In this document: positions 1 through 49,347 of the stretch, in pieces
How the letters are laid out: the number at the start of each line of letters is the position of its first letter
Numbering within the stretch: the first letter of the stretch is position 1
DNA from: a virus
Virus record (IMG/VR): IMGVR_UViG_3300024518_000002
Span: 1 to 49,347 of that record
Length of the DNA stretch: 49,347 bases
Reading direction: 5' to 3' (one strand)
Notes under the pieces: model-generated
Database searches by the model: none
What the model saw: only the letters and a program-made list of their open reading frames with translations
Told to the model about the DNA's origin: nothing
Made by a program: the position numbers and the translations under genes

Positions 1-2612
1 TAGACGATAACGGCGGATCGTTGACGATTGATAACGCTGATATAACCACCATCGCAGGTGCGGTTTCTGGCTCTGAAATGCAGGTGGACGTAATAACATC
101 TGCCCTGCCCACGGGTGCGGCAACAGCAGCTAACCAGTTGGCAGACGGTCATAACGTGACGATTGACAATGCCTCTGGCGGTTCGGCCGTCAATATTCAA
201 GACGGTGGAAATTCGATTACAGTTGATAATGGCGGTACGTTTGTGGTACAGGAAGATGGTGCAGCTTTAACCGCCTTGCAATTGATAGACGACGCGGTAG
301 CTACGCTAGGGACTTCTACTTATTCAGAAGCAACAACCAAAGGAAATATCATTGGTGCGGTTCGCAATGACACATTGGCCGCACTCGCAAATACAGATAA
401 CGAGATTGCACCTTTGCAGGTAAACGCCTCTGGCGCACTATACATTCAGGAAGGCACGGCACTAGATGTAAGTGGGGCAACGGTAATAGTAGACGGGTCT
501 GGGGTTACGCAGCCAATAAGTGCGGCAAGTTTACCGTTGCCAAGCGGGGCAGCTACAGCGGCGAATCAATCCACTGGTAACACAAGCCTGTCAACTATTG
601 CGGGGGCGGTTTCTGGCACCGAAATGCAGGTCGATGTTTTAACGATGCCATCGACGGCCGTTACCAACACAGGTACTTTTGCGGTGCAAGAGGATGGCGC
701 GGCATTAACGGCTTTACAGTTGATTGATGATACCGTCTATACCGACGATACAAGCACACATGCCACCGGAACCAGCAAAGGGCTGGGCATGATGGCGGCA
801 GCAACGCCAACCGATGGGTCGGTTGATGCAAATGACATTGGGATGCTTTCCATGTCAACCGACAGACGGCTGTTAGTTGATTCTCAAATTGTAGGCACGG
901 ATGCGGCTCTTGACGTAAGCGCGGCAACGGTAACGGTTGACGGCTCGGGGGTTACGCAACCAATAAGCGGAACAGTTACCGCTAATCTATCGGCAACTGA
1001 CAATGCAGTTTTGGATCAAATAGAAGTCAATACCAGCTATGGAGACAACACGGGCGGCGGTGTTGAGTCCGGCTCGTTGCGGGTTACGTTAGCAAATGAT
1101 TCAACGGGATTACTATCTGTAGACGATAACGGCGGATCGTTGACGATTGATAACGCTGATATAACCACCATCGCAGGTGCGGTTTCTGGCTCTGAAATGC
1201 AGGTGGACGTAATAACATCTGCCCTGCCCACGGGTGCGGCAACAGCCGCTAATCAATTGGCAGATGGTCACAATGTAACTGTTGATAATGCCTCTGGCGG
1301 TTCGGCCGTCAACATTCAAGACGGTGGTAATTCGATAACGGTTGACAATGGTGGTACGTTTGCCGTTCAGGTTGACAACATGGGGAGCGCGGTTGATACC
1401 AATAACTCAACTACAACGCCATTAGGGGGCAGTGCAACTTACACCGGAACCGGAACCGATATGTTGGGATATGCCGCCGTTGCCATTACGCTATACGCCG
1501 ATGTGGACAGCGCGACCGATGGCATGACGTTTCAATTTAGCACGGATAACACAAATTGGGATGATATTTATACCTTTACGATGGATGTCTCCGCCAGCGA
1601 TACGCGACGTTTTCAATTCTCCGTAACGGCTCAATATTTTAGAGTCGTTTATACCAACGGCGGCGGTGCACAATCTGCATTTAGAGTACAAACAATTTTG
1701 CACACGGTTGACATTGACACGTCAATCCACAGGTTGGTTGATAATGTATCGCCTGACAGATCGGCAAATGTTGTTAAATCGGCACTCATTGCACAGGCAG
1801 CGGGATCGGGCAATTTTGTACCAGTGGCGGCGACGTCAGGCGGCAACCTGAAAATGTCTGTACAAGAATTTTCAGACGGGGTTGACGTTGGCAATGGGGC
1901 GGTAGGTTCTGAAACATTACGGGTCACGATTGCAAGCGATAGCACGGGTCTGATTTCTGTTGACGACAACGGAGGTAGCCTCACAGTTGACAACGCAGCC
2001 CTAAGCATCGCGGGCGGCGGGGTTGAGGCTTCAGCTTTGCGTGTGACGTTGGCAAGCGACAGCACAGGGTTGTTGTCAGTCGATGATAACGGCGGATCAT
2101 TGACGGTTGACGGTACGATTACGGCTAGTAATGCGGCGGGTGATGTAGCCCACGATGCGGCTGATTCTGGAAATCCCATCAAAACGGGCGCAAAGGCGGT
2201 CAACTTTGACGGCACGGCTCCAGGAACGGCCGTGGCAGAGAATGACAGAGTAAATCATATTGCTGATGTTTACGGCCGTCAATTTGTGGAAACGGCACAC
2301 CCCAACCATTGGCATGTTTCGGCAGATTACGCAAGCGCACAAACAAACACAACCGTCAAGGCCGCACCAGGGGCAGGGCTTAAACTATACATTACCGACA
2401 TTGTAATTAGCAATGGGGCAACGGCTGGAAATATTACGTTGCTTGACGGTTCCGGTGGATCGGTTGTGTTTGAATTATACCCAGCAGTCAGTGGCGGGGC
2501 AGCTATGCCATGGAGAACGCCGATTGATCTAACTGCTAATACGCTATTGGCAATTACCAGCACGACAGTAACAACACACTCAGTCACGATTAGCGGATAC
2601 ACGGCTCCATAA
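1..2612 (+). CDS. Tail fibre / receptor-binding protein, 3' part (gene starts at 48893 and crosses the circular junction)
   Basis: Frame open from base 3 to TAA 2610-2612 and continuous with 48893..49347 through the 106-nt terminal overlap. G/T/A/D-rich with SVDDNGGSLT(I/V)D x4 and ALTALQLIDD x2. Adjacent to tail genes. Confidence 0.75.
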   Translation, partial: DDNGGSLTIDNADITTIAGAVSGSEMQVDVITSALPTGAATAANQLADGHNVTIDNASGGSAVNIQDGGNSITVDNGGTFVVQEDGAALTALQLIDDAVATLGTSTYSEATTKGNIIGAVRNDTLAALANTDNEIAPLQVNASGALYIQEGTALDVSGATVIVDGSGVTQPISAASLPLPSGAATAANQSTGNTSLSTIAGAVSGTEMQVDVLTMPSTAVTNTGTFAVQEDGAALTALQLIDDTVYTDDTSTHATGTSKGLGMMAAATPTDGSVDANDIGMLSMSTDRRLLVDSQIVGTDAALDVSAATVTVDGSGVTQPISGTVTANLSATDNAVLDQIEVNTSYGDNTGGGVESGSLRVTLANDSTGLLSVDDNGGSLTIDNADITTIAGAVSGSEMQVDVITSALPTGAATAANQLADGHNVTVDNASGGSAVNIQDGGNSITVDNGGTFAVQVDNMGSAVDTNNSTTTPLGGSATYTGTGTDMLGYAAVAITLYADVDSATDGMTFQFSTDNTNWDDIYTFTMDVSASDTRRFQFSVTAQYFRVVYTNGGGAQSAFRVQTILHTVDIDTSIHRLVDNVSPDRSANVVKSALIAQAAGSGNFVPVAATSGGNLKMSVQEFSDGVDVGNGAVGSETLRVTIASDSTGLISVDDNGGSLTVDNAALSIAGGGVEASALRVTLASDSTGLLSVDDNGGSLTVDGTITASNAAGDVAHDAADSGNPIKTGAKAVNFDGTAPGTAVAENDRVNHIADVYGRQFVETAHPNHWHVSADYASAQTNTTVKAAPGAGLKLYITDIVISNGATAGNITLLDGSGGSVVFELYPAVSGGAAMPWRTPIDLTANTLLAITSTTVTTHSVTISGYTAP
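1101..1246. repeat. 146-bp perfect direct repeat of 49223..49347+1..127, embedded in a ~385-bp diverged duplication inside the tail-fibre gene
   Basis: Base-by-base comparison. Identity starts after the c/t mismatch at 49222/1100 and ends at the a/c mismatch at 128/1247. Flanks differ mostly at synonymous sites. Confidence 0.9.
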
Positions 2613-2800
2613 TGACGCTTTTAATATTATTTGCCGGCTCAGATAGCGCAGTAGTTGTCATTATTGTCGGCGCGGCCGAAGATGCGGCGTTTGTGAGAAA
2701 GGCAAAATTGGCCGCTAATGTCAATAATGAGAGTGTGCTATATGGATTTGTCACAAAAGAAGAGGCGGCTAATGTGGATGAAGGTTTTGCGAGTAGCTAA
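2612..2800 (+). CDS. Hypothetical small protein
   Basis: 62-aa ORF. Its ATG overlaps the tail-fibre stop (TAATG). No recognisable motif. Confidence 0.45.
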   Translation: MTLLILFAGSDSAVVVIIVGAAEDAAFVRKAKLAANVNNESVLYGFVTKEEAANVDEGFASS

Positions 2801-2812
2801 TCAGAGGCAACT

Positions 2813-3157
2813 ATGGCGACAAAAGTAAAAGAATTACACAATGCAGATGTTGATTTTAGATATGTTATCTGGTGCGACCTGGACAGCACAAACGACGGCA
2901 CGGCGGCAGATAATGGCTATCTGCAAGGGGCAACTATTAGCACATCCGTGTGGACGCTGGAAACGGGATTAACTGAGGTGTCAGAGGACAGCGCATCTGT
3001 CACGATTGGCGGCATAACCTACGACGTTAATACGGTGGCGACGATAAAGGTTAGCACGTCTAGTACCTATGTCGGGCAAACATTGACGGCAACCAACAAA
3101 ATCGTAACATCTGATGCCCGGACATTGAATCATACATTATTGATTCCTATTGTATAA
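2813..3157 (+). CDS. Hypothetical protein, possibly tail-fibre associated
   Basis: 114-aa ORF with AGAGG upstream of the ATG, immediately after the fibre gene. Confidence 0.55.
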   Translation: MATKVKELHNADVDFRYVIWCDLDSTNDGTAADNGYLQGATISTSVWTLETGLTEVSEDSASVTIGGITYDVNTVATIKVSTSSTYVGQTLTATNKIVTSDARTLNHTLLIPIV

Positions 3158-3499: not shown

Positions 3500-3509
3500 T
3501 GGATAATGA

Positions 3510-3960: not shown

Positions 3961-4435
3961 ATGACACCGGCTGAAATCAAACAAGCATTTGCTAGTATCT
4001 TTGCTGAAATCAAAAAAACACAGGAGCTAATCAGTCAAGAGCTAACATACAACCGGCTTCTTGCTGAAAAAAGGTTTCGAGATTTTGGAGAAAACAGTCA
4101 GGAATCAGGCATTATCTATCGCAAAACTTCAGGAACAAGTTGATAAACAGGCGAGATACTGGCAAGCAATTGGCGAGCCTGTACGTAAGAAGCATGACAC
4201 GGGATACTTTCAAGATCGGGGCAAACTTCTAGCGCAGATTGTGGAATTATTCTCAATGGATGAGCTAACGGCCGTATGCTTTGAGATTGGTGTCTTTTGG
4301 GATACATTGGCAGGGGATACGCTTCAATACAAAACGCGGTCACTGATTGAAAGTTTGGAGCGGGAAGGGCAACTGTACAAACTGCTAGACGAATGTGGAC
4401 GGCAGAGACCTGAGGCAGAATGGCCTATGCTATAG
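3961..4435 (+). CDS. Coiled-coil protein with C-terminal EAD-like helical domain; reading frame broken (+1) at A6 run 4067-4072
   Basis: ORF 3961..4143 and ORF 4061..4435 overlap. The downstream ORF has no ATG or RBS near its start. Coiled-coil character continues across the A6 run. The C-terminus reads FSMDELTAVCFEIGVFWDTLAGD...LIESLEREGQLYKLLDECGRQRP. Confidence 0.5.
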
Positions 4436-5802: not shown

Positions 5803-6026
5803 GGCATAAATTAAGCATCATAAATCATGTAGACGATACGCTGAAGATGATCGGCTGTGAAACGTGTAGCCTCCGTTTTATGGTAGAGATTGCCGAGAAC
5901 GGCCGTTTCGTTTCGGGCTCAAAGATAAACATCAATCCAGGTGATGTTGACGCGGCACATACCCTATTTTTAACGCCTGACGTTGATTTGGTTATGGATG
6001 TCAGGGTTGGGGTCGAACAGCCTTAA
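5799..6026 (+). CDS. Hypothetical protein
   Basis: ATG 5799 overlaps the upstream stop (ATGA). 75 aa. Confidence 0.5.
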   Translation: MRHKLSIINHVDDTLKMIGCETCSLRFMVEIAENGRFVSGSKININPGDVDAAHTLFLTPDVDLVMDVRVGVEQP

Positions 6027-6844: not shown

Positions 6845-9343
6845 ATGGTTACTTCGTTTCACGTTGGGATTGGTGGCAATAAAGACGGTATCGGGCAATG
6901 GATGCGTTCTCTAAACGATGCTGGTATCCCCTTCCCGCTTAAATCCGTTGACGAATACGGCGTATTATTTGAGGCATTGACGGTTGGCATCGAGCGCAAT
7001 ATTACCAACTGGCTTGTCTACCGCATGAGTGAATTTGAACACAGCGCGGCGGGCGTGCGAGAAACGCCCGACTATACCCTCCCCCCCTACGATGCGGCCG
7101 TTAAACATTGGCTACCTATCGAAGCTGCCCTCCCTCCTGAGTTTGATAAGATGGCCGTTTACATAGAACCGTTTAACGAAATCCGCATGAAAAAATCGCC
7201 CGACGATGTGCAATATAAGGATATGAACGCCGCCGACTGGATGGGTGAATGTTGTTATCATCTGGCGACATTTGCCAATGAACGTGGGTATAAGGTTGCC
7301 TTGCCAGCGATTAACAGCGGGGAACCTGGCGAAAAAGACGCTGGCATGATGGATGTCGTCACTCAGTACAGTCAACCGGGGATGCTAAAACTCATCGCCT
7401 ACGCCGCCGAACATCCTGATATGTGCCTCCTGTCAATTCACGAGTACATTTGGGACAGATATTTGCATGAGGATGAATCGTGGGCAGACTGGTATCCATA
7501 TTTATTTGGGCGTTTTGAGGGGTTGATAGCCGCCGCTGACAATGCGGGGATACCACGGACATTCAAGTGCATTGTAAGCGAGTGGGGATTTGACCGCGAA
7601 AAAGCACCGCGCTGGAATGAGGCCAAGCCGATCATAGAACAATACACGGCATGGATGGTACGATGGGCGCAAATCATCGTCGGCACTACCGCTTGGACAT
7701 TACAAAACGGAGAGGGCGGGGTTGACAATGACGTACAGACATGGATAGAGCCACTCATCCATTACACGATATATGAACGGCCGTTACCCGCCGAACAGCC
7801 GCAAATCACACATGAATTATTTGGATCCACCCTACCGCAACAGGAGAAACCACCGATGATTAACACGCAAACAATAGACATCCCTGAGGATGCTACAAAT
7901 TTTGAGATTGGCATTGTAAACAAAAGCGGGGAGATTATCGACCCTACGATATTTTATGATGGCGAAAACCTCCCTATTCAGATCATGGTTACTAGCACAC
8001 TGAGCGGCGAGATACCGCCGCCACAATTCCCCGCTATTGTCCCAAATGCTTTAGGTGTCGATGTGTCCGCTCATCAGGGCAAATTTGATTGGGAAACGGC
8101 CGTTTCCAATGGTGTCACCTATGCCATTATCAGATCATCAAATGGACTAGGCAGTACGTCAACAGATCAAAACGGCCGTGACGAACAGCTATTCAGAAAC
8201 GCAGGTAGATTGACGGAGCGAAATATGCCGTGGGCAGTCTATCACTTTTTGCAGGATGGGCAGAGCATTGTCAAACAGGCGGAACTTGTCAATGATATTC
8301 TGGCAGAATTAAAGGCATTGCATATGTATCCAAAAACGGCCGTCTTTAACAATGGCGTGACATTGCCAACGCTGTTTATTGACGTTGAAAAGGCGACATT
8401 GACACCCGATCAAATTAAACTATTTGCTGATAATATCCCGTTTAGATACGGCATCTACACACGTAAATCATTATGGAATCCTATCATGGCAGGAACGGCC
8501 GTTTGGTGGGAAAATATTTGTTGCTGGGTAGCTGCATATGGTAAAAACGATGGCAGTGTTCCGCCGTGGAAACCTGGAACGCCATATGGATTTAAGCGTA
8601 ATACAATTTGGCAATACACAAGTCAGGGCGGGCATATCATCGGCTCAACCGCTGGCCTGGATTTGAATATAGCAACCCCATTTGAACAGGAAACCGAACC
8701 GCCTGACATTGACCCCCCTACTGGCAAAACATACGATTTGTTGGGCTACATGATGGGCGACGGCCGTTTATTCGAGTTCCAGCTATCTGATGCCAACAGA
8801 AACGCCACAAACCAAGAGCGCAATCAAACGCAGTCTGAGGGTGAATTATTTTATATTGTCAAGGGGGAGAATCAGGGCGTGTGGGAGCGATACCATTACA
8901 ATGACGAATACATTTTACAAGATACGGATACATCACCAGCCAACGCCAGCGACGGTACAGAACGATATTACCAAGTGCGGAGAGCGGATGGCGTGACTCT
9001 GGTTCCGTATACCAAACGACATATGAAAATTGGCGAGAAGTTTATCGGTTCCCCCCACTGGGTACAATTCTACAGAAAATCAGATTGTGAGCTGCATCCT
9101 GAAAACAGCGGTGAAGCCACAAATGTGACGACGCTAATTGCTCATTATGATTTTTATGAATTTGATAAATTAACAGTTGCAGATGTAGTTGTGGTTGAGT
9201 CGGGCGGAGAAACACACTGGTTTGCACGGGGATACGGCCGTGTCGCCTGGTATTCAATCTGGGGTAATGCTGAAATCAGCGAGGAGCATGCGCCAGGGCA
9301 ACGGCCGGATATAGTGAGGGAGGTTATCGGGTGCTTGGATTAG
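6845..9343 (+). CDS. Multi-domain endolysin: N-terminal clan-A-like glycosidase, central GH25 muramidase, unknown C-terminal domain
   Basis: GVDVSAHQGKFDWETAVSNGVTYAIIRSS...AVYHFL is a classic GH25 signature. The N-terminal domain has EPFNE and VSEWG motifs typical of TIM-barrel glycosidases. The last ~210 aa are unassigned. Confidence 0.8.
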   Translation: MVTSFHVGIGGNKDGIGQWMRSLNDAGIPFPLKSVDEYGVLFEALTVGIERNITNWLVYRMSEFEHSAAGVRETPDYTLPPYDAAVKHWLPIEAALPPEFDKMAVYIEPFNEIRMKKSPDDVQYKDMNAADWMGECCYHLATFANERGYKVALPAINSGEPGEKDAGMMDVVTQYSQPGMLKLIAYAAEHPDMCLLSIHEYIWDRYLHEDESWADWYPYLFGRFEGLIAAADNAGIPRTFKCIVSEWGFDREKAPRWNEAKPIIEQYTAWMVRWAQIIVGTTAWTLQNGEGGVDNDVQTWIEPLIHYTIYERPLPAEQPQITHELFGSTLPQQEKPPMINTQTIDIPEDATNFEIGIVNKSGEIIDPTIFYDGENLPIQIMVTSTLSGEIPPPQFPAIVPNALGVDVSAHQGKFDWETAVSNGVTYAIIRSSNGLGSTSTDQNGRDEQLFRNAGRLTERNMPWAVYHFLQDGQSIVKQAELVNDILAELKALHMYPKTAVFNNGVTLPTLFIDVEKATLTPDQIKLFADNIPFRYGIYTRKSLWNPIMAGTAVWWENICCWVAAYGKNDGSVPPWKPGTPYGFKRNTIWQYTSQGGHIIGSTAGLDLNIATPFEQETEPPDIDPPTGKTYDLLGYMMGDGRLFEFQLSDANRNATNQERNQTQSEGELFYIVKGENQGVWERYHYNDEYILQDTDTSPANASDGTERYYQVRRADGVTLVPYTKRHMKIGEKFIGSPHWVQFYRKSDCELHPENSGEATNVTTLIAHYDFYEFDKLTVADVVVVESGGETHWFARGYGRVAWYSIWGNAEISEEHAPGQRPDIVREVIGCLD

Positions 9344-9560: not shown

Positions 9561-9614
9561 GATTTCTCCCTGACTTCAGTACGAGGCCGCAGAAACGGCC
9601 GTTTATTGGGTTGT

Positions 9615-10433: not shown

Positions 10434-10434
10434 G

Positions 10435-11119: not shown

Positions 11120-11350
11120 GATTATCCGCATCGTCGGGATACTTGTTCCCTCTTATCCCTCCCCCTCTTGACTGGCGATGCGATCATCAATTTTGTTGTG
11201 GGGCTGCCTACCTTCTCTGGCGGCTTCACAGCAAAGCGGGTGATGTAGTCCGCTTATTGTTTACCTCCTTTTTGTTGAGGGGGCGGTTGAGATGACGGCC
11301 GTTCCCCCATTAAGGAGTAGTCTACTTTGGAGTATGTAACGTGAAATCAA

Positions 11351-24577: not shown

Positions 24578-24583
24578 TATCGA

Positions 24584-39675: not shown

Positions 39676-40424
39676 TGGCGGCTACCGCATCTGGAAAAGA
39701 CAAGATATTACGCTGGACGCGGATATATGTCGGTGGCTACGACCTCTCCGGTGATTCTCGCACGTTTTCAAGTGCTGACATCATTTATGGCGAGGCAGAC
39801 GTGACGGGATGGTCGGAGGCGGTGACGAATTTTCTAAGAGACGGCCGTCTCGCAACGGGCATCCGTGGCTATCAAGCATTGTTAAACGATGCGACAGGAC
39901 GCGCCTATACCATCCTTCAGGCGGGCAATGCTCAAAACGTCTCATTGCTATTTGGCGGCGGTGGGGAGCCAGCCATCCCCGATCCAGCGTACCTAATTCC
40001 ATCTGTACAAATGATGGATAACGCAACTATAGACGGCAATGTGGCAATGATTAACGCCGATTTTATCCCACAGGCGGGGGCGGTTGATACGGCCGTCGCC
40101 AATCCTTTTGGGGTTCTGCTTTCACCTGCAACGTCAATCAGCAGCACAACGACGGGAGCAAGTCATGACAATGAGGGTGCAACGACAGGCGGCTGGCATT
40201 CAATTATTCATATTACGGCCACCTCATCGGGTAATTTTGCATTTACGATTGAACACTCAACAGACGACAGCGCATGGGCAACACTAGGAACATTTACAAC
40301 GACAGGCGGCAGCGTGACAAGCGAATATCTGTCAGGTAGTGGAACCGTTAATCAATATACTAGATTTTTAGCAACACGAACGGCAGGAACGGTTACGCCT
40401 GTTGTTTCATTTGCAAGGGGTTAA
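39675..40424 (+). CDS. Major tail (tube) protein candidate
   Basis: 249 aa. Shares DLSGD...TGWSEAVTNFLR with the next gene. Confidence 0.55.
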   Translation: MAATASGKDKILRWTRIYVGGYDLSGDSRTFSSADIIYGEADVTGWSEAVTNFLRDGRLATGIRGYQALLNDATGRAYTILQAGNAQNVSLLFGGGGEPAIPDPAYLIPSVQMMDNATIDGNVAMINADFIPQAGAVDTAVANPFGVLLSPATSISSTTTGASHDNEGATTGGWHSIIHITATSSGNFAFTIEHSTDDSAWATLGTFTTTGGSVTSEYLSGSGTVNQYTRFLATRTAGTVTPVVSFARG

Positions 40425-40892: not shown

Positions 40893-41251
40893 TGATCATT
40901 CCCTGCCCCGTCGATGGTTTCACCGAACAAACGGCCGATAACAAACCCGTCTATTTTTTAGACGTGCCGGACGAATGGCTAGGTAAGCATCTATCTGTTC
41001 GTGACACGGCCGTAACTGGGTTGGCAAACGGTGAAGCGGCAGGGATGCCCATCGAGTTCAAAACATTTGCCATTTCATTAGCCCTTGCCGACAACTGGAA
41101 CCTGCCAGGCGTAACGGGCAAAATGGAAAGCGTTGATTTTAATATGCTCAATTTGTCCATAATGGCGTGGGTGAATTATACGGTGTGGGGGAGCTTTAAT
41201 AGGTGTTTTAATGTCCCAAAAAACTCATCACCTCCGTTACCGAATGGGTAG
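40892..41251 (+). CDS. Tail assembly chaperone (G-like)
   Basis: Immediately upstream of the tape measure. Contains a slippery heptamer near its 3' end. Confidence 0.6.
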   Translation: MIIPCPVDGFTEQTADNKPVYFLDVPDEWLGKHLSVRDTAVTGLANGEAAGMPIEFKTFAISLALADNWNLPGVTGKMESVDFNMLNLSIMAWVNYTVWGSFNRCFNVPKNSSPPLPNG

Positions 41252-41538: not shown

Positions 41539-43418
41539 AAACCGAACTAATCATCAGCGCAGTTACAAAAGGCTTCAAGGCCGTTGAAACTTCCGTTAAG
41601 GGTTTGGGGAAATCATTTGAAACGGCCGCCGAAAAAGCATCTACGGCTGGCAAGAAACTTGACGGATTAGATGTAGCCGCCAAAAATATCGCCAAAGCTG
41701 GATTAGCGGCAGGTGGTGCGGCTTTGCTTGCTTTTGGCAAGGCATCCATAACGGCCGCCTCTGATGTTGAAGAAATGCAGTCAAAGTTTGACACTGTTTT
41801 TGGTTCATTGGGCGGAGAAGTCACCGACGATTTGCAGGGATTTGCAGATGCTGCCAATCGTTCCATTTTTGACCTACAGGGATTCGCCGCCACGCTACAA
41901 GACACCTTTAAGCCGTTAGGGTTTGCCGGTGATGCAGCCGCCGACATGTCGGTCAATATGGTGCAACTGGCAACTGATTTGGGGAGCTTTAACAATATTG
42001 ACACGGCGACGGTTGTCAACGATCTTCAATCTGCACTGGTTGGAAATACCGAAACTCTCCGCAAATACGGGATTGTTGCCAGTCAGTCAGCTATTGATAA
42101 CGAGGCTTATGCACTCGGCCTGAACTTTACAAAAGGCAGAATGGACGCTCTGACAAAGGCAACGGCTATCCAGTCTATCATTATGAAGTCAACCGTTGAC
42201 GCGCAAGGTGATGCGATTAAAACGGCCGATAGTTTTGCTAATCAGATGGTTGGACTAAAAGCCGCCGTGCAAGAATTGAGCGTCACATTTGGCGGGGCAT
42301 TATTACCAGCGGCAACGGCCGTTGTCGGTAAATTGACGGAAGCGACCGATGTCGTCAAGGGTTTGCAGGGGCAAATGGGGCAGATGGCGGAAGCATCAGA
42401 CGACGGCACCTCTGCATTTTCTAACGTGCTAGTTGTCATGAATGAAATTAATAAGGCGGTGGGTGGTATCCCCGTCGATGATTGGATTGCAGGGATACGC
42501 GGCGGCGAGAGAGCCGCTAATGCAGGGGCAATTGCTACAGCTGAACTAGCGGCGGAGATTGAAGAATCCGACAGCGTATTGGCAGCATTGACGCAAACAA
42601 CGCTTGACAACATTGCGGCCGATGAAAGAGCTGCTGCCGCACATGATTTACTTGTATTATCAATACGCGACGGGTTAGATGATGGTGAGCGTTTAGCCGT
42701 TACATGGCAGGATGTGAAGGCGGCGGAAGAAGCGCGGCTTGAGACTGCCGAACGAATGAAAGAAGCTGATGAGGAAAGTGCATTGGCTTTATTTGAATTA
42801 GAACAGGCACAGGCGGGATATTTTCAAACGGCACTTGATGGCTCGCTGGTGCAAGACGATCTTAATAACGCCATCTTTGACGCAGCCGCAGCAGCGGGGG
42901 CAAGTGCGACAGAGTTAGCTTTACTTGGTGGGGCGTTGGGATTGTATAGTGAGGATGCTGTAAATGCCGCGCTTCAATCGGCGTTGATTCAGGCAAAGAT
43001 AGCTGAATTGGCGGGGTCATTTGCACGGGGCGAAACCACTATCACCGAAATGAGGGCAGAGCTGAACGGGTTTATTTCTGACATCCAAAACGTTCCAACG
43101 TCAAAGACAATTGATTTTCATTTGAATATACCCAAGATACCGCCATCGTTAGGCGGTAGCGTTGTTCCTGGCGGTAGTGCCGTTGCAGCGGCTGGCGGGG
43201 CAGATTTTACCGTCCCCGCTGGCTTTCCCAACGATTCATTTCCGATTCTTGCACAATCAGGCGAGCATGTAAAGATTACACCAGCAGGGCAAAATGGAGG
43301 CGTTGGTGGGCTTACCGCCAATATAAACATTAGTATTCAAAACGGCGACCCTGCTACCGTCAGAGGGTCAGTGACTGACGGATTGCTAGAAGCGTATCGA
43401 CGTAAGGGGGAGGTATAA
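41526..43418 (+). CDS. Tape measure protein
   Basis: 630 aa, Ala/Gly/helix-rich, downstream of the chaperone pair. Confidence 0.85.
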   Translation: MASIKTELIISAVTKGFKAVETSVKGLGKSFETAAEKASTAGKKLDGLDVAAKNIAKAGLAAGGAALLAFGKASITAASDVEEMQSKFDTVFGSLGGEVTDDLQGFADAANRSIFDLQGFAATLQDTFKPLGFAGDAAADMSVNMVQLATDLGSFNNIDTATVVNDLQSALVGNTETLRKYGIVASQSAIDNEAYALGLNFTKGRMDALTKATAIQSIIMKSTVDAQGDAIKTADSFANQMVGLKAAVQELSVTFGGALLPAATAVVGKLTEATDVVKGLQGQMGQMAEASDDGTSAFSNVLVVMNEINKAVGGIPVDDWIAGIRGGERAANAGAIATAELAAEIEESDSVLAALTQTTLDNIAADERAAAAHDLLVLSIRDGLDDGERLAVTWQDVKAAEEARLETAERMKEADEESALALFELEQAQAGYFQTALDGSLVQDDLNNAIFDAAAAAGASATELALLGGALGLYSEDAVNAALQSALIQAKIAELAGSFARGETTITEMRAELNGFISDIQNVPTSKTIDFHLNIPKIPPSLGGSVVPGGSAVAAAGGADFTVPAGFPNDSFPILAQSGEHVKITPAGQNGGVGGLTANINISIQNGDPATVRGSVTDGLLEAYRRKGEV

Positions 43419-43841: not shown

Positions 43842-46724
43842 ATGGGTAATGTCACCAACGTACAGGTAGAAATCTTCAACGGCTCCGATGTCAGTCAGGG
43901 GACGATTGACGGTGACAAACTGTTGAGTTTCAAAACTAAAGCCATGTTGAGCGGCATCGGGAAAGGCGAGTTTGTTGTCGCGCTAGATGATACGGAAAGC
44001 ACGGCCTTGGTGACAAGAAACGCTATAGCCGTTCTGTCATTAGATACAACGCGCATCTCGGGCATCATTGTACAAGCATTTATTATTCAGGAAATCAAGC
44101 AGGATATTTTAGCAAGCGGCCGTGCCGTCTTGCGCGTGTCCGGTGCTGACATGCTCTATGAATGGACATATACCAACCTGGGTTATACGGTCATTGATGA
44201 TGGTGCGGGGGGTGAAATATCAAATATTGTTGATAATATTGTAACCAATTTCGACCCAGGCATTGGCGGCGGCTGGGGTCATACCAATTTCCATTTTTCA
44301 GCGGGACAAGGCGATGGGTATCACGTCCCAAGCGCGGAGACAGCATGGCAAGCAATTAGTCAGCTTGGTGGGGCGCGGGGGATTTATTATTCGCTAGGAT
44401 TAAATGATGCCTCTTATTCTGGCGTAGGCATTCCCGACCGCCGCATCATTGAGTGGGGTAGCTTCCAGGTCACAAACAGCCCCCCGCCGGCCTCTGTATT
44501 TGATACGATGATCCTGATGTTAGCTCCATCTGCAACGGGTGAGCGGCCAATTCTTGACGGTACGTTTAGGATTATCAATGAACCAAGTGAGGTTGTGACG
44601 CGGGTATATGTTTATGGCGCGGGGCAGGGTAATGACCGTTTTACATTGGCAGATAAAACAGACGCTGATCCTACCGGATTCACAACCACGGCAGCCGATT
44701 CTCTCATTGTAAATACAACGCTGGAAGCCGTTTCAGACCAGCCGCAAATCACGCGCGTGACTCATTTCTCGTCTATCAAGCCAGAGGATATTAGCGATGC
44801 CACAATGAGGGCAACGGCCGCCAACCAATTGTTACAAGCAGGCGTGTCCTATCTAACCGAACGTGATGGTTCTAATAAAGTTTATTATCAAATGGACACG
44901 CTCCCAGACGGCCGTCATATACCAGGCCAACTTGTCACCCTGACATACACACGCACTTCGCCGTGGGATAGTGCGGGGGCAGAGATCGATACAGACATTA
45001 TATCAATCAGCGATACGTTTTTACTCCTCGAATATAGCACGACGATGGATAGTAATAACAACTGGGTAGCTACCGTTTTGTTGGGTGACGTGCCGGAATT
45101 ACCAGAGCAGGGCGATAGCATGACGGCCAAGCGGATTGTCAAACTGGAGGAGACGCTTAGACATTCAACCTCTGGACAATCATCACCCACAAAACCCGTG
45201 GACGGTGATACTTACCTTAAATCAGCAGGATCGCCGCCGAACCTGACGGGTAACATGGTGGTTGATGCTGGCATCACGATTGACACGGTAGACATTAGTG
45301 CCGCCAATGCACAATCATTTTTGATGGTGAATGCAAGTAGCGAACATGAATTTGAACGCAGCGTTAACTTTAGTGCCGACTTTACCATTACCGATAACGG
45401 CGCAAACAGCACTTATGACATTGACCTCAACGCAGGATCGGGGGCATTGCATGACGCCTTAACGTTGGGTACAAATGCGTCCGCATTTCTTGAATTGACC
45501 GGCCAACTTTTAGGATTAGACACACAAACAGCCAATACGGGTTTCTTTGGCCCCACTACTGGCGTCGCGGCCGATCCCGCCTTTCGGGCGATGGTATTTG
45601 CCGATGTGCCAACAGACAGCGACCCCACGGGCGAGGCGGTATTAGCGAGTGATAGCAACGGCCGTTTAGGATTGGAGGGGTTGGGCATCCTGACCGCACC
45701 TGACGGCGACTATATCAAAATTACCAGCGGTGTGACGGCTATCGGGCTGGCGAATTCAGGCGCGGCGCGGTTGGAATTTACAAACGCGGTCACCGATTTA
45801 CTAGAATTACATGACGGCAACTTTAACCTAGTAAACAGCGGCGTGACCAAATTGCAATTGCGATTTGGCGGGGATGTATCAGCGACAGAAAGCGACATAT
45901 ACGCCGCCGATGCAATGGGGTTAGCTGCTGACGATGATATAGCTGTATTCATAGATGCAAGCAATGGCAGTACTGCCCGTTCATTTAAGGTAATGAAAGA
46001 CGCCGAGGATGTAGCCAGCGCAACCGAGCTGATGCGCGTAAATGAGAGTGGCGAATTATTGTTAGGGGCAACGGGCAACAGCGGAACTACTGTAGGGGTT
46101 ACTATCAATCAGGCCAACCTTGATGACGAGGCTCTCGCATTGCAGGATTCAACCCAGATCGCCACCGGACATACAGCATTTACAAAAACGGAAACATACG
46201 GCCGTCTCTTAAAATGGGTGGGTGCATCGGGCGGCTTACGGGTTGAGGGGTTTACAGAGGCATCGGGCGGGTTGGTATTAATTGGACGCGCCACAAATGA
46301 AGTGACGACCGATACATCCGCCTCAACAGGGAACGTCATTTTACGCGCCGCATTAAAAAGCGGCGTATCGTCTACTACACACGGCAGTACCGGCAATTTA
46401 TTGGTTGTTCAAAACAACGCCACGACACGATTCTTAATCAAAGGCAACGGAGACATTCATGCAACCAATACCGTCATAACGGCACTTGATGATTATGATG
46501 ACGTAGCGTTGTTGCGAACACTTGACAGAGAAACAACTTTATCTGGTATGATAGAATCTAGTTGGGATAAATTTATAAATTATAATCGCTCTCATTTGGA
46601 AGAGGCGGGCGTAATTGTTGGTGATTTTATCAGTATGCAGGGACACCAACGATTAACGAGCGGAGCTATCTGGCAGCTTCACGAGCGATTGGCGGAAATG
46701 GAGGCGAAAATTGGCAACGTCTAA
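43842..46724 (+). CDS. Large tail tip / baseplate-fibre protein
   Basis: 960 aa following the Dit position. The C-terminal segment (DDYDDVALLRTL...GAIWQLHERLAEMEAKI) resembles chaperone-like tails of fibre proteins. Confidence 0.7.
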   Translation: MGNVTNVQVEIFNGSDVSQGTIDGDKLLSFKTKAMLSGIGKGEFVVALDDTESTALVTRNAIAVLSLDTTRISGIIVQAFIIQEIKQDILASGRAVLRVSGADMLYEWTYTNLGYTVIDDGAGGEISNIVDNIVTNFDPGIGGGWGHTNFHFSAGQGDGYHVPSAETAWQAISQLGGARGIYYSLGLNDASYSGVGIPDRRIIEWGSFQVTNSPPPASVFDTMILMLAPSATGERPILDGTFRIINEPSEVVTRVYVYGAGQGNDRFTLADKTDADPTGFTTTAADSLIVNTTLEAVSDQPQITRVTHFSSIKPEDISDATMRATAANQLLQAGVSYLTERDGSNKVYYQMDTLPDGRHIPGQLVTLTYTRTSPWDSAGAEIDTDIISISDTFLLLEYSTTMDSNNNWVATVLLGDVPELPEQGDSMTAKRIVKLEETLRHSTSGQSSPTKPVDGDTYLKSAGSPPNLTGNMVVDAGITIDTVDISAANAQSFLMVNASSEHEFERSVNFSADFTITDNGANSTYDIDLNAGSGALHDALTLGTNASAFLELTGQLLGLDTQTANTGFFGPTTGVAADPAFRAMVFADVPTDSDPTGEAVLASDSNGRLGLEGLGILTAPDGDYIKITSGVTAIGLANSGAARLEFTNAVTDLLELHDGNFNLVNSGVTKLQLRFGGDVSATESDIYAADAMGLAADDDIAVFIDASNGSTARSFKVMKDAEDVASATELMRVNESGELLLGATGNSGTTVGVTINQANLDDEALALQDSTQIATGHTAFTKTETYGRLLKWVGASGGLRVEGFTEASGGLVLIGRATNEVTTDTSASTGNVILRAALKSGVSSTTHGSTGNLLVVQNNATTRFLIKGNGDIHATNTVITALDDYDDVALLRTLDRETTLSGMIESSWDKFINYNRSHLEEAGVIVGDFISMQGHQRLTSGAIWQLHERLAEMEAKIGNV

Positions 46725-46968: not shown

Positions 46969-47180
46969 ACGATTTAGAGGAATTGATTAATAAGTGGATA
47001 GCAAAACGAGATGATTTTATCGTGCAGGCAAATAATGAAATTGCATTAATTAACGGCCGTATAGCACAGTTGAAGGATTTGATTGAAGCTCAAGGGCAAG
47101 CGCAAGAATCCCAAAACGGCCGTGTAGATGATACGACAGCCATCGGTACGTTACCAGAGGAACTTGTCAATGAGGGCTAG
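46965..47180 (+). CDS. Small coiled-coil protein
   Basis: 71 aa with ATGA overlap. Confidence 0.55.
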   Translation: MNDLEELINKWIAKRDDFIVQANNEIALINGRIAQLKDLIEAQGQAQESQNGRVDDTTAIGTLPEELVNEG

Positions 47181-48204
47181 GTTCGGGGTAGTTATTGGTC
47201 TACTGTCAATCGTCTTCGTTATCATGAGTATTGACGTATTGGCGGTTGATTATACCGAACCTATCCCCCTGCCCCAGCTAGGAACAGACACCTATTTGGG
47301 TGTAGTCGGCGGTCTATATCCGAATGGTTCCAACAATGTACCGAACGGGTATGCTGACGATGCATTTCTCGCCTTGCAAAATGACGACGATATACACGTT
47401 CTCTGTTTAGGTATGTCGAACATGAAATCTACGTGCGAGAATTTCATCAATAAGGCGGCGGGGGAAACGGCCGTTGCCAACAATGTTACAATCCACAATG
47501 GGGGTAGACCCGGACGCGCTCAGCAGGCATGGGGCGGCGGGGTAAGCGATCTCTATACCAACCTGAAGCGGGCGGGTGTATCGGTTCCAGAGGTCGATGT
47601 AGTGATCTATTTCAACGCGTGGGGGTATCCGTCTGGCGATTTTCAAAGCCATTATGACGAAATGTATGGCAGCTTAACAGAGACAATGGCGAATATCAAT
47701 AGCGTCTATCCCAATCTGAAACTAATTTACGTCACATCCCGTGAATATGCCCCACCATGGGCAGCGTCGTTAAATCCTAACCCGTATGCCTATGAGGAGG
47801 GGTTTGCTTTTCGGGATATTGTGACGGGTCGAATCAATGGCAATCTGTCAGGCGTTCCGATTCTGTGGGGTGCATACCAGTACGATCCATCATGGCCTGA
47901 TTCTTACTTCAAGGCATCGGACGGGGTGCATTTAAGCAGCGCGGGGCTAGATGTGGCCGGGCAACTGTGGCTTGATTTTTATTTAACACAGAGTTGGTTT
48001 GTTGACGGCAATCCGTCACCGACAGCAACGCCAACGGCCGTTTCCACAGCTACGCCGACAGGGGGGGCGACGGCAACCCCGACCCCCTTTCCAGCTACGC
48101 CTACCCCTGATGTTGAGCCAACCATGACGGCAACCAGTGGCGGGTGGCCTCCCCCCGATTGGTGTGAGACTCATCCACAATTACGGATGTGTCAGGAGAA
48201 ATAG
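47170..48204 (+). CDS. Membrane-anchored/secreted SGNH- or SASA-like esterase with Pro/Thr linker (tentative)
   Basis: N-terminal hydrophobic segment. LCLGMSNMKS resembles the GQSNM esterase motif. PT-rich linker PSPTATPTAVSTATPTGGATATPTPFPATPTP. Confidence 0.5.
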   Translation: MRARFGVVIGLLSIVFVIMSIDVLAVDYTEPIPLPQLGTDTYLGVVGGLYPNGSNNVPNGYADDAFLALQNDDDIHVLCLGMSNMKSTCENFINKAAGETAVANNVTIHNGGRPGRAQQAWGGGVSDLYTNLKRAGVSVPEVDVVIYFNAWGYPSGDFQSHYDEMYGSLTETMANINSVYPNLKLIYVTSREYAPPWAASLNPNPYAYEEGFAFRDIVTGRINGNLSGVPILWGAYQYDPSWPDSYFKASDGVHLSSAGLDVAGQLWLDFYLTQSWFVDGNPSPTATPTAVSTATPTGGATATPTPFPATPTPDVEPTMTATSGGWPPPDWCETHPQLRMCQEK

Positions 48205-48207
48205 TAA

Positions 48208-48882
48208 ATGGCTATTGTTGTCACGGCCGTTGGCGTAGGTACAAATACGAGTAGTAGCACTGTCGTTTCTGGTTCAGTGACTCATGACTCTGCCTCTGTA
48301 TTTGTAGCTATAGTTTCCATTTATGATGTATCTGATACTGTATCTGGTGTGTCTGGAATGGGATTAACCTGGAACGAGGTTCCAACGGATAGTCCGCAGG
48401 CTATAAGCAATATGGAGCACGCCGTATTTGTTGCTTACGGCTCGGGTTCTAACGGTGCGGTAACCGGTACTGCTACCGGTACATCCAATAGTTTGCTAAT
48501 TAGAATAATAGAAATTACGGGAGTGATTCAGCAAGCCGCTGAAGCAGACGAAGGTGCTACTGGCACTTCTACGTCATCTACAGACGATATAACGACCGTT
48601 ACGGACGGGGCAGTAATCATTAGTTCACAGGTTTCTGCAAGAGCAATTACGAGCATTGATGATGGATTTACGACCTTAGATATTACAACAACGGCTGGCA
48701 GTGGCCCGACACTAATCAATCACGGGTCGGGTTATTTAATATTGGCAACGGCAGGTGCACAAACAAGCTCATATACTCTGGCGGGTAGTGCCAGGGATTG
48801 GGCTATAATTCTGATTGCTTTTGAGGAAGAGGCGGTGGGCGGCGCAGTAGCGATTATGACACCGAATAGGGGCATATGGTGA
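48208..48882 (+). CDS. Hypothetical structural protein
   Basis: 224 aa, S/T/G/V-rich. Confidence 0.55.
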   Translation: MAIVVTAVGVGTNTSSSTVVSGSVTHDSASVFVAIVSIYDVSDTVSGVSGMGLTWNEVPTDSPQAISNMEHAVFVAYGSGSNGAVTGTATGTSNSLLIRIIEITGVIQQAAEADEGATGTSTSSTDDITTVTDGAVIISSQVSARAITSIDDGFTTLDITTTAGSGPTLINHGSGYLILATAGAQTSSYTLAGSARDWAIILIAFEEEAVGGAVAIMTPNRGIW

Positions 48883-48892
48883 GGATAATATT

Positions 48893-49347
48893 ATGAGTGA
48901 CAATTTGATCACGCAGACAACTGTGTCAACAGTACCGAGCGGCAGCGTTATAGCAACAGAGGATATAGGCTCTGCTCATTATCAAAAAGTCGTAGTTGCA
49001 TTAACCGACGGCACAACAATCAACGGCTTGCTTGACGTTGGGCAGTTGGCAATGGCGGCATCTATTCCCGTCGTCATTGCCTCCGATCAATCTTCGATTA
49101 CCGTTGATTTATCAGCAACCGATAACGCGGTATTAGACCAGATTGAAGTTAATACCAGTTATGGAGACAACACGGGCGGCGGTGTTGAAGCTGGTTCATT
49201 GCGAGTTACGTTAGCAAATGACTCAACGGGATTACTATCTGTAGACGATAACGGCGGATCGTTGACGATTGATAACGCTGATATAACCACCATCGCAGGT
49301 GCGGTTTCTGGCTCTGAAATGCAGGTGGACGTAATAACATCTGCCCT
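48893..49347 (+). CDS. Tail fibre gene, 5' part (runs off the window end and continues at base 1)
   Basis: ATG 48893 with GAGGA upstream. Hand translation gives MSDNLITQTTVSTVPSGSVIATEDIGSAHYQKVVVALTDG...SVDDNGGSLTIDNADITT with no stop before the window end. Confidence 0.75.
   Translation, partial: MSDNLITQTTVSTVPSGSVIATEDIGSAHYQKVVVALTDGTTINGLLDVGQLAMAASIPVVIASDQSSITVDLSATDNAVLDQIEVNTSYGDNTGGGVEAGSLRVTLANDSTGLLSVDDNGGSLTIDNADITTIAGAVSGSEMQVDVITSA

Follow-up and report, generated by a model that had tools for sequence, protein, structure and literature searches.

The 8-base palindrome ACGGCCGT occurs in 55 exact copies in the 49,347-nt stretch of phage DNA that we analysed (the window, taken at its full length). 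We consider it likely that ACGGCCGT is a hyper-abundant palindrome of the HIP1 kind, which belongs to the host lineage and is imposed on resident DNA, the phage included. The clade that bears the word is best read, from its sequences and their labels, as probably Chloroflexota of the NCBI class Ardenticatenia (Ardenticatenaceae, Promineifilaceae) together with relatives labelled Anaerolineae. The HIP1 phenomenon of cyanobacteria, which is unexplained, would then gain a second case, in Chloroflexota. We found no earlier report of the ACGGCCGT phenomenon in the literature.

Abundance, phase and independence of the sites

We calculated the expected number of copies under several null models. Dinucleotide shuffles gave 0.65 ± 0.80 copies with a maximum of 3, and Markov models of order 1, 2 and 3 gave 0.66, 1.24 and 2.5, so that the over-representation claimed in a preliminary description of this DNA holds (55 copies vs 0.7-2.5 expected). 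Codon-preserving nulls left 13.7 ± 1.8 copies (within-gene synonymous shuffle), 11.7 ± 1.6 (whole-genome synonymous shuffle) and 9.9 ± 0.9 (codon permutation), about 9 of which are unshufflable in each null, being intergenic or in gene overlaps; the corresponding z-scores were 22 to 50. The word was thus a strong outlier in all the codon-preserving and Markov tests that had been proposed for it. In a ranking of all 8-mers against a shuffle in which proteins and codon usage are preserved, ACGGCCGT came first (z = 21.4), followed by its own overlapping neighbours. The preliminary description had estimated about 55 copies by eye, in agreement with the exact count, and roughly 25 one-off variants, close to the 22 that we counted at outer positions. 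Six of its seven example coordinates were correct, and the copy that it placed at 48233 begins at 48223.

All copies are given below (strand "." throughout); L320, L321 and L325 are relatives of the phage.

654..661: coding, T-A-V
2226..2233: coding, T-A-V
2272..2279: coding, Y-G-R
4268..4275: coding, T-A-V; L325 orthologue CGCGCCAT (R-A-I)
5899..5906: coding, N-G-R
7777..7784: GH25 lysin gene, R-P phase
8096..8103: lysin gene, T-A-V, within GGGAAACGGCCGTTTCC; sole lysin site common to L325
8172..8179: lysin gene, N-G-R; also N-G-R in L325, spelled ACGGGCGC
8336..8343: lysin gene, T-A-V; T-A-T in L325
8495..8502: lysin gene, T-A-V; T-D-S in L325
8760..8767: lysin gene, D-G-R
9234..9241: lysin gene, Y-G-R; R-G-L in L325
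9348..9355: minus-strand ORF, N-G-R
9595..9602: non-coding
11295..11302: non-coding in gene set used
14452..14459: primase-like gene, R-P phase
15144..15151: coding, N-G-R
16030..16037: coding, T-A-V
17114..17121: non-coding, first of three within 110 nt
17189..17196: non-coding
17213..17220: non-coding
18301..18308: coding, R-P phase
21160..21167: coding, T-A-V
22323..22330: coding, T-A-V
24743..24750: coding, Y-G-R
26408..26415: coding, T-A-V
27274..27281: methyltransferase gene 26911-27798, T-A-V
27946..27953: small terminase gene, D-G-R
28294..28301: coding, Y-G-R
28397..28404: TerL codons 2-4, T-A-V, variable family position; shared by L320, not by L321 (K-A-I)
29250..29257: TerL, conserved D-G-R; shared by L320, not by L321
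30188..30195: 594-aa ORF downstream of TerL (portal position), N-G-R
31063..31070: same 594-aa ORF, T-A-V
31933..31940: non-coding
32254..32261: coding, H-G-R; ACGGCAGG in L320
32282..32289: coding, R-P phase; common to L320
32870..32877: coding, T-A-V
33184..33191: non-coding
34484..34491: coding, T-A-V
35884..35891: coding, H-G-R
36746..36753: coding, T-A-V
36889..36896: coding, Y-G-R; R-G-M in L321
39284..39291: coding, T-A-V
39841..39848: coding, D-G-R
40089..40096: coding, T-A-V
41006..41013: coding, T-A-V
42315..42322: coding, T-A-V
44908..44915: coding, D-G-R
45658..45665: coding, N-G-R
46198..46205: coding, Y-G-R
47053..47060: coding, N-G-R
47116..47123: coding, N-G-R
47467..47474: coding, T-A-V
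48034..48041: coding, T-A-V
48223..48230: coding, T-A-V

The sites read T-A-V in 23 cases, x-G-R in 21 and R-P in 4, and 7 are non-coding, which bears out the earlier estimates for the three codon phases (about 23, 20 and 5). Coding sequence (44.9 kb) accounts for 48 of the sites and non-coding DNA (4.5 kb) for 7. No tripeptide is more frequent in the proteome than T-A-V (27 observed vs 6.4 expected), and 24 of the 27 are spelled as ACGGCCGT, where about 8% would be expected from codon usage. Because all three codon phases and non-coding DNA carry the word, the force behind it acts on DNA and not on protein, as had been proposed. The spacing is consistent with a Poisson process (KS p = 0.59), and the positions are uniform along the phage genome (p = 0.84), all modules being alike. 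One dispersed longer repeat had been considered as the source; no repeat family covering the copies was found in the window, and their flanks are unrelated. Thus the copies do not derive from one longer repeat, and the sites are mutually independent.

Distribution, flanks and turnover of the word

The preliminary description had suggested that the word reports the host lineage and that host genomes be searched for it. We scanned genome collections and found at least about 36 fetched stretches in which ACGGCCGT is the commonest 8-mer. Among the matches listed, all but one, a MAG labelled "Bacillota", are labelled Chloroflexota, and the density is 1.4-3.3 per kb in the 32 stretches scored; with the clusters that triggered the hits masked, it is still 1.9 per kb. 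Further lineages may carry the word. The Chloroflexota MAGs concerned belong to Ardenticatenaceae, Promineifilaceae, Ca. Leptovillus and Ca. Leptofilum, and several are labelled Anaerolineae. The cellular Chloroflexi contig L322, which was picked by lysin protein homology and independently of the word, has 27 copies in 19.5 kb (0.3-0.7 expected); ACGGCCGT is its commonest 8-mer too, with phases of 10:12:5. The density in the phage is about 40-60% of that in the sampled Chloroflexota DNA. A few unrelated IMG/VR contigs, in which the word is likewise the commonest 8-mer, have 2-4 copies per kb.

The flanks are also shared. Symmetric flanks, ggAA-ACGGCCGT-TTcc, are common to the phage, its relatives, Chloroflexota DNA and unrelated viral contigs, and in the window the preference exceeds the codon-position expectation on both sides. 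In 33 of the 55 copies the base before the word is A, in 31 the base after it is T, and the extended form AACGGCCGTT, which had been described as frequent, is present 19 times. One-off variants at internal positions are at expectation (observed/expected about 1), and those at outer positions alone are enriched, 3-7-fold, in the phage, host DNA and other viral contigs alike. The core of the word, CGGCCG, is therefore sharply defined. Transition variants, the targets of very-short-patch-type repair, showed no depletion relative to transversion variants, which counts against repair of this type.

Word and flanks are thus common to host chromosomes and unrelated phages, as a host-lineage word would be. 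HIP1 reaches 300-2700 copies per Mb in cyanobacteria, with observed/expected ratios of 55-228 (PMC4390886), and the phage has 1115 copies of ACGGCCGT per Mb with a ratio of about 54-85. Since the same word occurs in Chloroflexota chromosomes and unrelated phages, it appears to be a second example of the HIP1 type, in a different phylum, in line with the earlier proposal of a HIP1-like phenomenon with a different word.

The word is also the commonest 8-mer in L320, L321 and L325 (0.7-0.8 copies per kb), and more distant phage relatives lack it: 80 TerL relatives at ≤63% identity have essentially none. In very small samples, TerL sites were shared in 2 of 2 cases at 80% amino-acid identity and 0 of 2 at 66%, and lysin sites in 1 of 7 at 48%. 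Orthologous positions without the motif differ by at least 2 bases, and often the amino acid is changed too; sites are therefore gained and lost among the relatives through point substitution, often altering amino acids. The D-G-R at 29250-29257 in TerL is conserved (94/120 homologues), so the copy there was made by codon choice.

Origin of the word

Most likely, copies arise singly by point substitution where the sequence tolerates them, some by synonymous choice at conserved residues and others where a variable residue is replaced or the DNA is non-coding. In these cells they would then be retained by a DNA-level process with sequence specificity, which would need the exact CGGCCG core, prefer an adjacent A/T, and weakly favour the symmetric 16-bp context ggAAACGGCCGTTTcc. 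A methyltransferase acts on CGATCG at the HIP1 core, and extensions of the HIP1 word are known (PMC4390886). By analogy, the agent is most likely a host system that recognises CGGCCG; it would be a methyltransferase tied either to biased repair or to some advantage that the methylated mark brings. Phage DNA would be among its targets, as would all other DNA that resides in the cell. Whether methyltransferase, repair or functional signal, the agent is inferred from the pattern of the word, and no CGGCCG-specific enzyme of host or phage was identified; in about 300 kb of Chloroflexota DNA, the methyltransferases used as queries had no homologue.

The phage may have acquired the word passively or under selection. 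Selection is central to a second explanation, which we regard as possible but rather unlikely: ACGGCCGT would be a functional signal of "self", namely an uptake or recombination tag or a Chi-like nuclease stop, that phages are selected to carry because it lets them recombine or spares them from degradation. This explanation overlaps with a host-imposed word and differs in that the copies are adaptive for the phage, not a by-product. Unrelated phages converge on the word (observed/expected 81 and 54, not far from the 106 of the host), and the pressure is strong enough to alter amino acids. TerL sites are kept where nucleotide identity is 70%, a level at which an 8-mer would be retained neutrally with a probability of about 6%. 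Long prophage residence would favour passive acquisition; no integrase was found in the window, so passive prophage amelioration is not established. HIP1 has recently been proposed as a DNA uptake or recombination tag; it raises transformation efficiency in a methylation-dependent manner (10.1101/2024.09.10.611283) and is correlated with DNA-transfer genes (10.64898/2026.06.24.733823). However, Chi is defined by its orientation, and a palindrome has none. Uptake sequences known so far are non-palindromic, and their singly mismatched forms are over-represented too (PMC1939737), whereas the internal variants of ACGGCCGT are not.

Host assignment and the phage's own genes

The host is assigned from lysin homology and from the word and flanks that the phage has in common with Chloroflexota; on this basis, the phage most likely infects a member of the Ardenticatenia/Promineifilaceae-type Chloroflexota clade. 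No CRISPR spacer, tRNA or integration site tying the phage to a host was found. The MAG that contains the closest phage relative bears the label Ketobacter, which is a gammaproteobacterium; two phage-like contigs (TerL 81% identity, lysin 45%) stand under "Ketobacter sp." MAGs. A Ketobacter host, with the word shared with Chloroflexota by coincidence or through a wider distribution, is nevertheless improbable. Both contigs look like phage DNA, which is easily mis-binned in metagenomes, and no proteobacterial motif-rich stretch was among the matches listed in the genome scan. The closest full-length lysin match amid cellular genes is on a ACGGCCGT-bearing Chloroflexi MAG contig, and a lysin domain matches an Ardenticatenaceae protein. 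The lysin itself is an 832-aa GH25 protein with extra domains, a kind that is mostly met in phages whose hosts lack an outer membrane, which also argues against Ketobacter.

The two methyltransferase genes noticed earlier are present (17613-18281 and 26911-27798), and L320 and L321 encode C5-cytosine methyltransferases; the phage's own enzymes might therefore create or require the word, through protection or directed repair. This is very improbable. Both enzymes in the window are of the N6_N4 type with a DPPY motif, which is typical of adenine methyltransferases, yet the CGGCCG core contains no adenine. TerL relatives without a single copy encode orthologues of the 26911-27798 enzyme (40-55% identity), and in the window this enzyme is internally deleted compared with another assembly of the same phage. 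As both are adenine-type and one has orthologues in word-free relatives, the methyltransferases are very probably not the cause of ACGGCCGT. Moreover, the word reaches the same density in cellular chromosomes, and also in unrelated phages, in whose fetched parts no homologous methyltransferase occurs.

That the copies are packaging sites, origin iterons, operators, terminators or other phage cis signals is the least credible reading, because 48 of 55 are intragenic, their Poisson spacing and uniform density ignore module boundaries, and the word is also the commonest 8-mer of host chromosomes. Seven copies are intergenic, three of them within 110 nt of non-coding DNA (17114-17220), and for this local cluster near 17.1 kb only, a cis-acting role could be considered.

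Abundance and structure of the palindrome

We counted the 8-base palindrome ACGGCCGT exactly in the 49,347-base window and found 55 copies, which corresponds to 1115 per Mb and to an observed/expected ratio of 54–85. The preliminary description had estimated about 55 copies by eye; six of its seven example coordinates were correct, and the copy placed at 48233 lies at 48223. The G+C content of the window is 46.9%. Dinucleotide-preserving shuffles of the window gave 0.65 ± 0.80 copies (maximum 3), and Markov models of order 1, 2 and 3 predicted 0.66, 1.24 and 2.5 copies, respectively. Codon nulls were calculated with a rough gene set of 82 ORFs, nearly all on the plus strand, which covers about 91% of the window. 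The expected number was 13.7 ± 1.8 when synonymous codons were shuffled per gene, 11.7 ± 1.6 when they were shuffled genome-wide, and 9.9 ± 0.9 when codons were permuted inside genes; each of these values includes about 9 copies out of reach of the shuffle, being intergenic or located where genes overlap. In the protein-preserving shuffle, ACGGCCGT had the highest z-score of all 8-mers (z = 21.4), and the next ranks were its own overlapping neighbours. Because the observed count so far exceeds the codon nulls and the word has the top z, the possibility raised in the preliminary description that an exact count would be unexceptional against codon-shuffled nulls fails.

The same description had allowed that the copies might derive from one dispersed longer repeat. 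The 12 bases flanking either side of the 55 copies are unrelated among copies, and a repeat finder returned no longer family containing them, merely two or three short chance extensions; thus an origin from one repeat fails, and a dispersed repeat or mobile element is ruled out as the source. REP and MITE elements are imperfect palindromes of 20–40 bp or longer, mostly extragenic and with conserved flanks, whereas the copies of ACGGCCGT have in common only the 8-mer and a weak preference over ±4 bases, and 48 of the 55 lie inside genes. Positions are uniform along the window (p = 0.84). Distances between copies are consistent with an exponential distribution (KS p = 0.59), and quasi-periodic spacing is absent from the window. 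The peak of local density is in the GH25 lysin gene at 6845-9343 (7 copies in 2.5 kb). At 17057-17250, between the helicase gene and the next genes, three copies fall inside 110 nt of non-coding DNA, a clustering that is only marginally unlikely by chance once corrected for the whole window.

We then assigned the copies to codon phases. The word is read as T-A-V in 23 cases, as x-G-R in 21 and as R-P in 4, and 7 copies are non-coding, in agreement with the earlier estimate by eye. Density is equal in coding (48 sites in 44.9 kb) and non-coding DNA (7 in 4.5 kb). T-A-V is the commonest tripeptide in the window proteome (27 vs 6.4 expected), and 24 of the 27 are encoded by ACGGCCGT, for which codon usage predicts about 8%. 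N-G-R and Y-G-R occur at about four times expectation, and GGCCGT encodes 22 of the 75 G-R dipeptides. A protein-level cause of the excess is rejected by the three phases and the non-coding copies, by the codon nulls and by the codon choice at T-A-V. The word has reshaped the phage proteins, and for protein evolution this is a case in which a DNA word put one tripeptide at the head of a phage proteome.

The core CGGCCG occurs 88 times in the window against about 12 expected, and 55 of the 88 are flanked by A...T. One-off variants are enriched at the two outer positions only (GCGGCCGT 5.7-fold, TCGGCCGT 3.7-fold), and internal variants are all at or below expectation; the outer-only enrichment is also true of host DNA, that is, of the word-rich Chloroflexota stretches described below, and of other viral contigs. 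Past the 8-mer there is a weaker symmetric context, gGAA-ACGGCCGT-TTCc. This preference exceeds the codon-position prediction on both sides (p from 4 × 10−6 to 6 × 10−3 at ±1 to ±3, with genes nearly all on one strand), and at ±4 the p-value is 0.006 for the 3' flank and 0.058 for the 5' flank. It is identical in the window, its relatives, host DNA and unrelated viral contigs. As symmetric flanks surround a rigid centre, the unit is a graded palindrome of about 16 bp with a CGGCCG core.

The other palindromes of the window show the avoidance usual for phages. Twelve hexamers are at zero where 5–23 are expected for each (TTTAAA, TGGCCA, GATATC, CGATCG, CCGCGG, GGGCCC, CCCGGG, CTGCAG, GAGCTC, GGTACC, GTCGAC and TCTAGA), GCATGC (1 vs 24 expected) and ATGCAT (2 vs 31) are nearly missing, and GGCC beyond CGGCCG is depleted about 2.5-fold. 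Palindrome avoidance in the Chloroflexota stretches correlates with that in the window (r about 0.5; GGGCCC 3 vs 140, GCATGC 16 vs 159), which suggests strong pressure from restriction systems in this group of hosts.

The phage genome and the turnover of its sites

By gene content (Pfam, PHROGs), the window is a tailed-phage genome with the following features:

21-2612, large first ORF with a weak F5/8 type C domain match
6845-9343, GH25 lysin, whose non-catalytic domains match Chloroflexi and Ardenticatenaceae MAG proteins
9615-10457, minus strand, 280-aa ORF with no family match
12992-13396, protein with a LexA-type DNA-binding domain
26911-27798, one of two N6_N4 methyltransferases in the window
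27705-28397, small terminase
28394-29782, TerL
29773-31557, 594-aa ORF in the portal position, with no family match
33272-34591, Mu-like protease/scaffold gene
within the window, a primase-like gene and a DnaB-like helicase

Pfam and PHROGs gave no integrase in the window, and the LexA-type protein is the sole candidate lysogeny marker; tRNA and Rfam searches of the window found nothing. Just 3' of the LexA-type gene is an inverted repeat (13486-13580; 25-nt arms, 88% complementary, 45-nt spacer) that could be an operator or origin. Two intergenic repeat pairs lie upstream of small genes, one at 23396-23463 and 24569-24636 (68 nt, 82% identity) and one at 23508-23533 and 25327-25352 (26 nt, 96% identity), and both families may be phage promoters or regulatory sites.

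The same phage was independently assembled in ENA ERZ27250004 (49,784 bp) and in Logan SRR7615962, so the window is not an assembly artefact; its TerL protein is also recorded from a JGI source. Repeats of about 250 nt with 91–92% identity (1-252 and 1120-1371; 976-1225 and 49098-49347) occur in the first ORF and once more where the window ends. The window seems to be broken within a repetitive gene, possibly for a tail fibre. Because it ends inside this gene, it is probably a complete genome, circular or, as we consider probable, circularly permuted. A megablast search of positions 1-25000 against 50,697 phage records found nothing, and TerL has at most 46% identity to cultured phages, mainly those of Thermobifida and Streptomyces, a result that is uninformative on the host. 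On these comparisons the phage has no close cultured relative.

Relatives were found outside IMG/VR by protein search: L320 (TerL identity 81%, 47.5% G+C), L321 (TerL 66%) and L325 (lysin 48%). In all three phages ACGGCCGT is the commonest 8-mer, at 0.7–0.8 per kb. Both TerL sites of the window are common to L320 (70% nucleotide identity) and neither to L321 (64%), a comparison of very few sites. L320 has two extra TerL sites, where the window has ATGAACGT (N-E-R, against N-G-R in L320) and GCGACCGA. At the TerL sites of the window, L321 has K-A-I for T-A-V and D-G-V for D-G-R. In an alignment of 120 TerL members, D-G-R is kept in 94, so there the choice of codons produces the word; the T-A-V site belongs to the N-terminal part, which varies. 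For the lysin, a small sample, one of seven window sites is common to L325 (57% nucleotide identity). At one further site L325 retains N-G-R-D with different codons, and at the remaining sites the amino acids differ (T-A-T, T-D-S, R-G-L). The comparison with these three relatives therefore indicates that point substitutions create and erase sites in each lineage and alter amino acids in doing so, and from the few sites compared the sites appear to persist for some time. The word is written site by site through substitution, with a strict CGGCCG core.

The word in other viruses and in Chloroflexota

We explored the distribution of the word in viral and cellular collections. The 80 IMG/VR loci with TerL relatives (identity up to 63%) contain essentially no ACGGCCGT, contrary to expectation, and thus the word was not inherited along with the phage backbone. 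When IMG/VR was scanned for pairs of copies inside a 30-base span, a few contigs emerged in which ACGGCCGT reaches 2–4 per kb, and a stricter three-copy pattern matched only 18 stretches among 2.9 million contigs, about 7 of them truly enriched. As these contigs have merely scattered weak proteins in common with the window, they are unrelated phages.

The three-copy pattern was also searched in 185,579 species genomes, where at least 120 stretches matched. Among the matches listed, actinomycete stretches of 70% G+C were low-density chance matches, and ACGGCCGT was the commonest 8-mer in about 36 stretches, with a density of 1.4–3.3 per kb in the 32 that were scored (50–62% G+C). The word-dominated stretches among the matches listed were all from Chloroflexota except for one MAG labelled 'Bacillota', and the word-rich taxa among them were Ardenticatenaceae MAGs, Ca. 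Leptovillus affinis, a complete Ca. Leptofilum chromosome (NZ_OZ244997.1), Ca. Promineifilaceae and several bins labelled Anaerolineae, Chloroflexia or Chloroflexota. Ardenticatenaceae and Promineifilaceae belong to the class Ardenticatenia (NCBI taxonomy). The trait is lineage-wide, with ACGGCCGT the top 8-mer in stretches of more than 20 Chloroflexota MAGs from several genera. When the triggering clusters were masked, the Chloroflexota stretches still had 1.9 copies per kb.

A full-length homologue of the phage lysin (34% identity) is present on a contig of a 'Chloroflexi bacterium' MAG (L322). This 19.5-kb contig, which carries ordinary cellular genes, served as a control picked through the lysin and independent of the word. 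It has 27 copies of ACGGCCGT against 0.3–0.7 expected, the word is its commonest 8-mer, and the three phases are in the ratio 10:12:5. Two contigs of the Ardenticatenaceae MAG GCA_029979785.1 (L323:1-23336 and L324:1-18002) contain only 2–3 copies of the 8-mer. The core CGGCCG occurs in this MAG 88 times in 23 kb against 12–21 expected (4–7 times), with no flank preference. The MAG represents a variant lineage keeping the core alone, which resembles the HIP1 derivatives described in cyanobacteria (PMC4390886).

ACGGCCGT marks a Chloroflexota lineage at the DNA level. Chromosomes of this lineage and several unrelated phages contain it, and it is missing from the more distant relatives of this phage. 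From the common word, its flanks and the lysin homology, we infer a Chloroflexota host. The L320 relative is a 45.6-kb phage contig (JAAETU010001664.1) in MAG GCA_024228005.1, labelled Ketobacter sp., a gammaproteobacterium, and a second lysin-bearing contig has the same label. The label is most simply explained as a binning error, and it stays a caveat on the host. ACGGCCGT can reveal errors of this kind, and it offers a strong and inexpensive way to recognise phages whose hosts belong to a major group of filamentous bacteria, almost uncultured, from wastewater and marine samples.

Comparison with other genomic words and candidate agents

HIP1 (GCGATCGC) and a few other iterated palindromes have been reported from cyanobacteria, where HIP1 reaches 300–2700 copies per Mb (PMC4390886). 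ACGGCCGT is likewise an 8-base perfect palindrome, with about 1100 copies per Mb in the phage and 1400–3300 in the Chloroflexota stretches, and observed/expected ratios are about 50–100 for both words. Both consist of independent copies in all frames and in non-coding DNA that spread via nucleotide substitution, and both have a 6-base core resembling a type II recognition site (CGGCCG and CGATCG, respectively), weak palindromic extensions past the 8-mer, and lineage variants in which the core is kept and the flanks are altered (here in one Ardenticatenaceae MAG). In the broad HIP class (Elhai 2015), ACGGCCGT finds its place by abundance (1115 per Mb, observed/expected 54–85, top z), by the independence of its copies and by its lineage-wide occurrence. 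Further traits of the class are a methylated core targeted by a DNA methyltransferase, usually an orphan one, conservation of sites beyond the neutral level, and a quasi-periodic distribution along the chromosome, from which the exponential spacing in the phage departs. However, ACGGCCGT is not HIP1 proper, the cyanobacterial word GCGATCGC that goes with the methyltransferases DmtA (GATC) and DmtC (CGATCG); the window has no CGATCG at all. The word and the phylum differ, the core contains GGCC rather than GATC, so that a Dam-type adenine methyltransferase cannot take part, and internal one-off variants are not enriched. In addition, ACGGCCGT is documented here in phage genomes.

Full-text literature searches turned up no mention of ACGGCCGT as a genomic word and no account of an iterated palindrome in Chloroflexota or their phages, and a paper on a wastewater methylome contained nothing relevant. 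This is a HIP1-type phenomenon with a new word, a new core and a new phylum, together with a phage record. To our knowledge, no function of HIP1 has won acceptance in thirty years, in part because the word had been seen in a single phylum. A separate case in Chloroflexota, with a CGGCCG core, permits comparison with HIP1, in which one can ask which methyltransferase, repair, competence and nuclease families track both words across phylogenies.

Maintenance of the word would depend on a host system with specificity for CGGCCG whose action extends to any DNA in the cell. The all-or-nothing core suggests an enzyme as specific as a restriction enzyme rather than a loosely binding protein, and the 16-bp symmetry of the context suggests that the reader is a dimer. 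By analogy with HIP1, the agent is most likely a methylation-linked process, since the HIP1 core is the target of the CGATCG methyltransferase (PMC4390886; PMC6105098). Such a process could be biased repair, or it could act through a benefit from the methylated mark.

The main rival to a methylation-linked agent is that the word is a functional self, uptake or recombination signal, which phages may be selected to imitate. The uptake sequences of Pasteurellaceae (USS) and Neisseriaceae (DUS) are likewise lineage-specific short words at about 1 per kb, lie inside genes in all frames, bias peptide content, and build up by point mutation with a sequence-specific bias. However, they are non-palindromic 9–12-mers with a known receptor and a known uptake bias, and their mismatched forms are gradually over-represented (PMC1939737), whereas ACGGCCGT is a perfect palindrome with internal one-off variants at expectation and an all-or-nothing core. 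Chi sites are also lineage-specific over-represented words (5–8-mers) that mark DNA as self to a host nuclease, and phages can benefit from them. Chi is asymmetric, its orientation is skewed with replication and it is several-fold less dense, whereas ACGGCCGT is its own reverse complement and has no orientation.

Among methylation-linked processes, very-short-patch repair did not show its expected signature. In the Dcm/Vsr system of E. coli (CCWGG), site-specific repair on all cellular DNA likewise shifts the abundance of a methyltransferase site, and the effects of such repair on word abundance are only a few-fold. Vsr removes specific transition variants, whereas here the enrichment is 50–100-fold and the selective loss of C-to-T variants is not seen among the one-off variants.

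A joint reading, which we regard as tentative and rather improbable as a whole, is that Chloroflexota of the Ardenticatenia group evolved a CGGCCG system independently of cyanobacteria and that their phages are positively selected to copy the word as a kind of password. Phage DNA would then be taken for self by a host nuclease, repair or recombination system that senses word density. If this were true, HIP-type words would be a general, convergent self-marking device rather than a cyanobacterial peculiarity, and phage genomes would be a natural experiment on the function of the word. The presence of the word in unrelated phages, its absence from distant relatives and its visible turnover give a handle on selection versus host-imposed drive.

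The preliminary description had also connected the word with the two methyltransferases of the phage. Both carry DPPY, a catalytic motif that typifies N6-adenine enzymes, the CGGCCG core contains no adenine, and orthologues of the 26911-27798 enzyme (40–55% identity) occur in TerL relatives with zero ACGGCCGT; the connection is therefore unsupported. The 26911-27798 enzyme has 295 aa in the window and in the Logan assembly and 429 aa in the ENA assembly (about 130 residues missing), and in the window version just about 25 residues separate DPPY from the FSGSG motif, so its product here is probably an inactive deletion variant. L320 and L321 encode C5-cytosine methyltransferases. Their PDB matches (M.HaeIII, M.HhaI) and the weak matches of the window enzymes (DpnA, CcrM and N4C enzymes) cover catalytic domains only, from which no target can be inferred. 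A tblastn search with five phage methyltransferases found none in the Chloroflexota stretches, whose roughly 300 kb are too small for this result to mean much. At L321:1-1773, a GIY-YIG nuclease gene lies directly upstream of the C5-cytosine methyltransferase gene, and the two may form a phage-borne restriction-modification pair.
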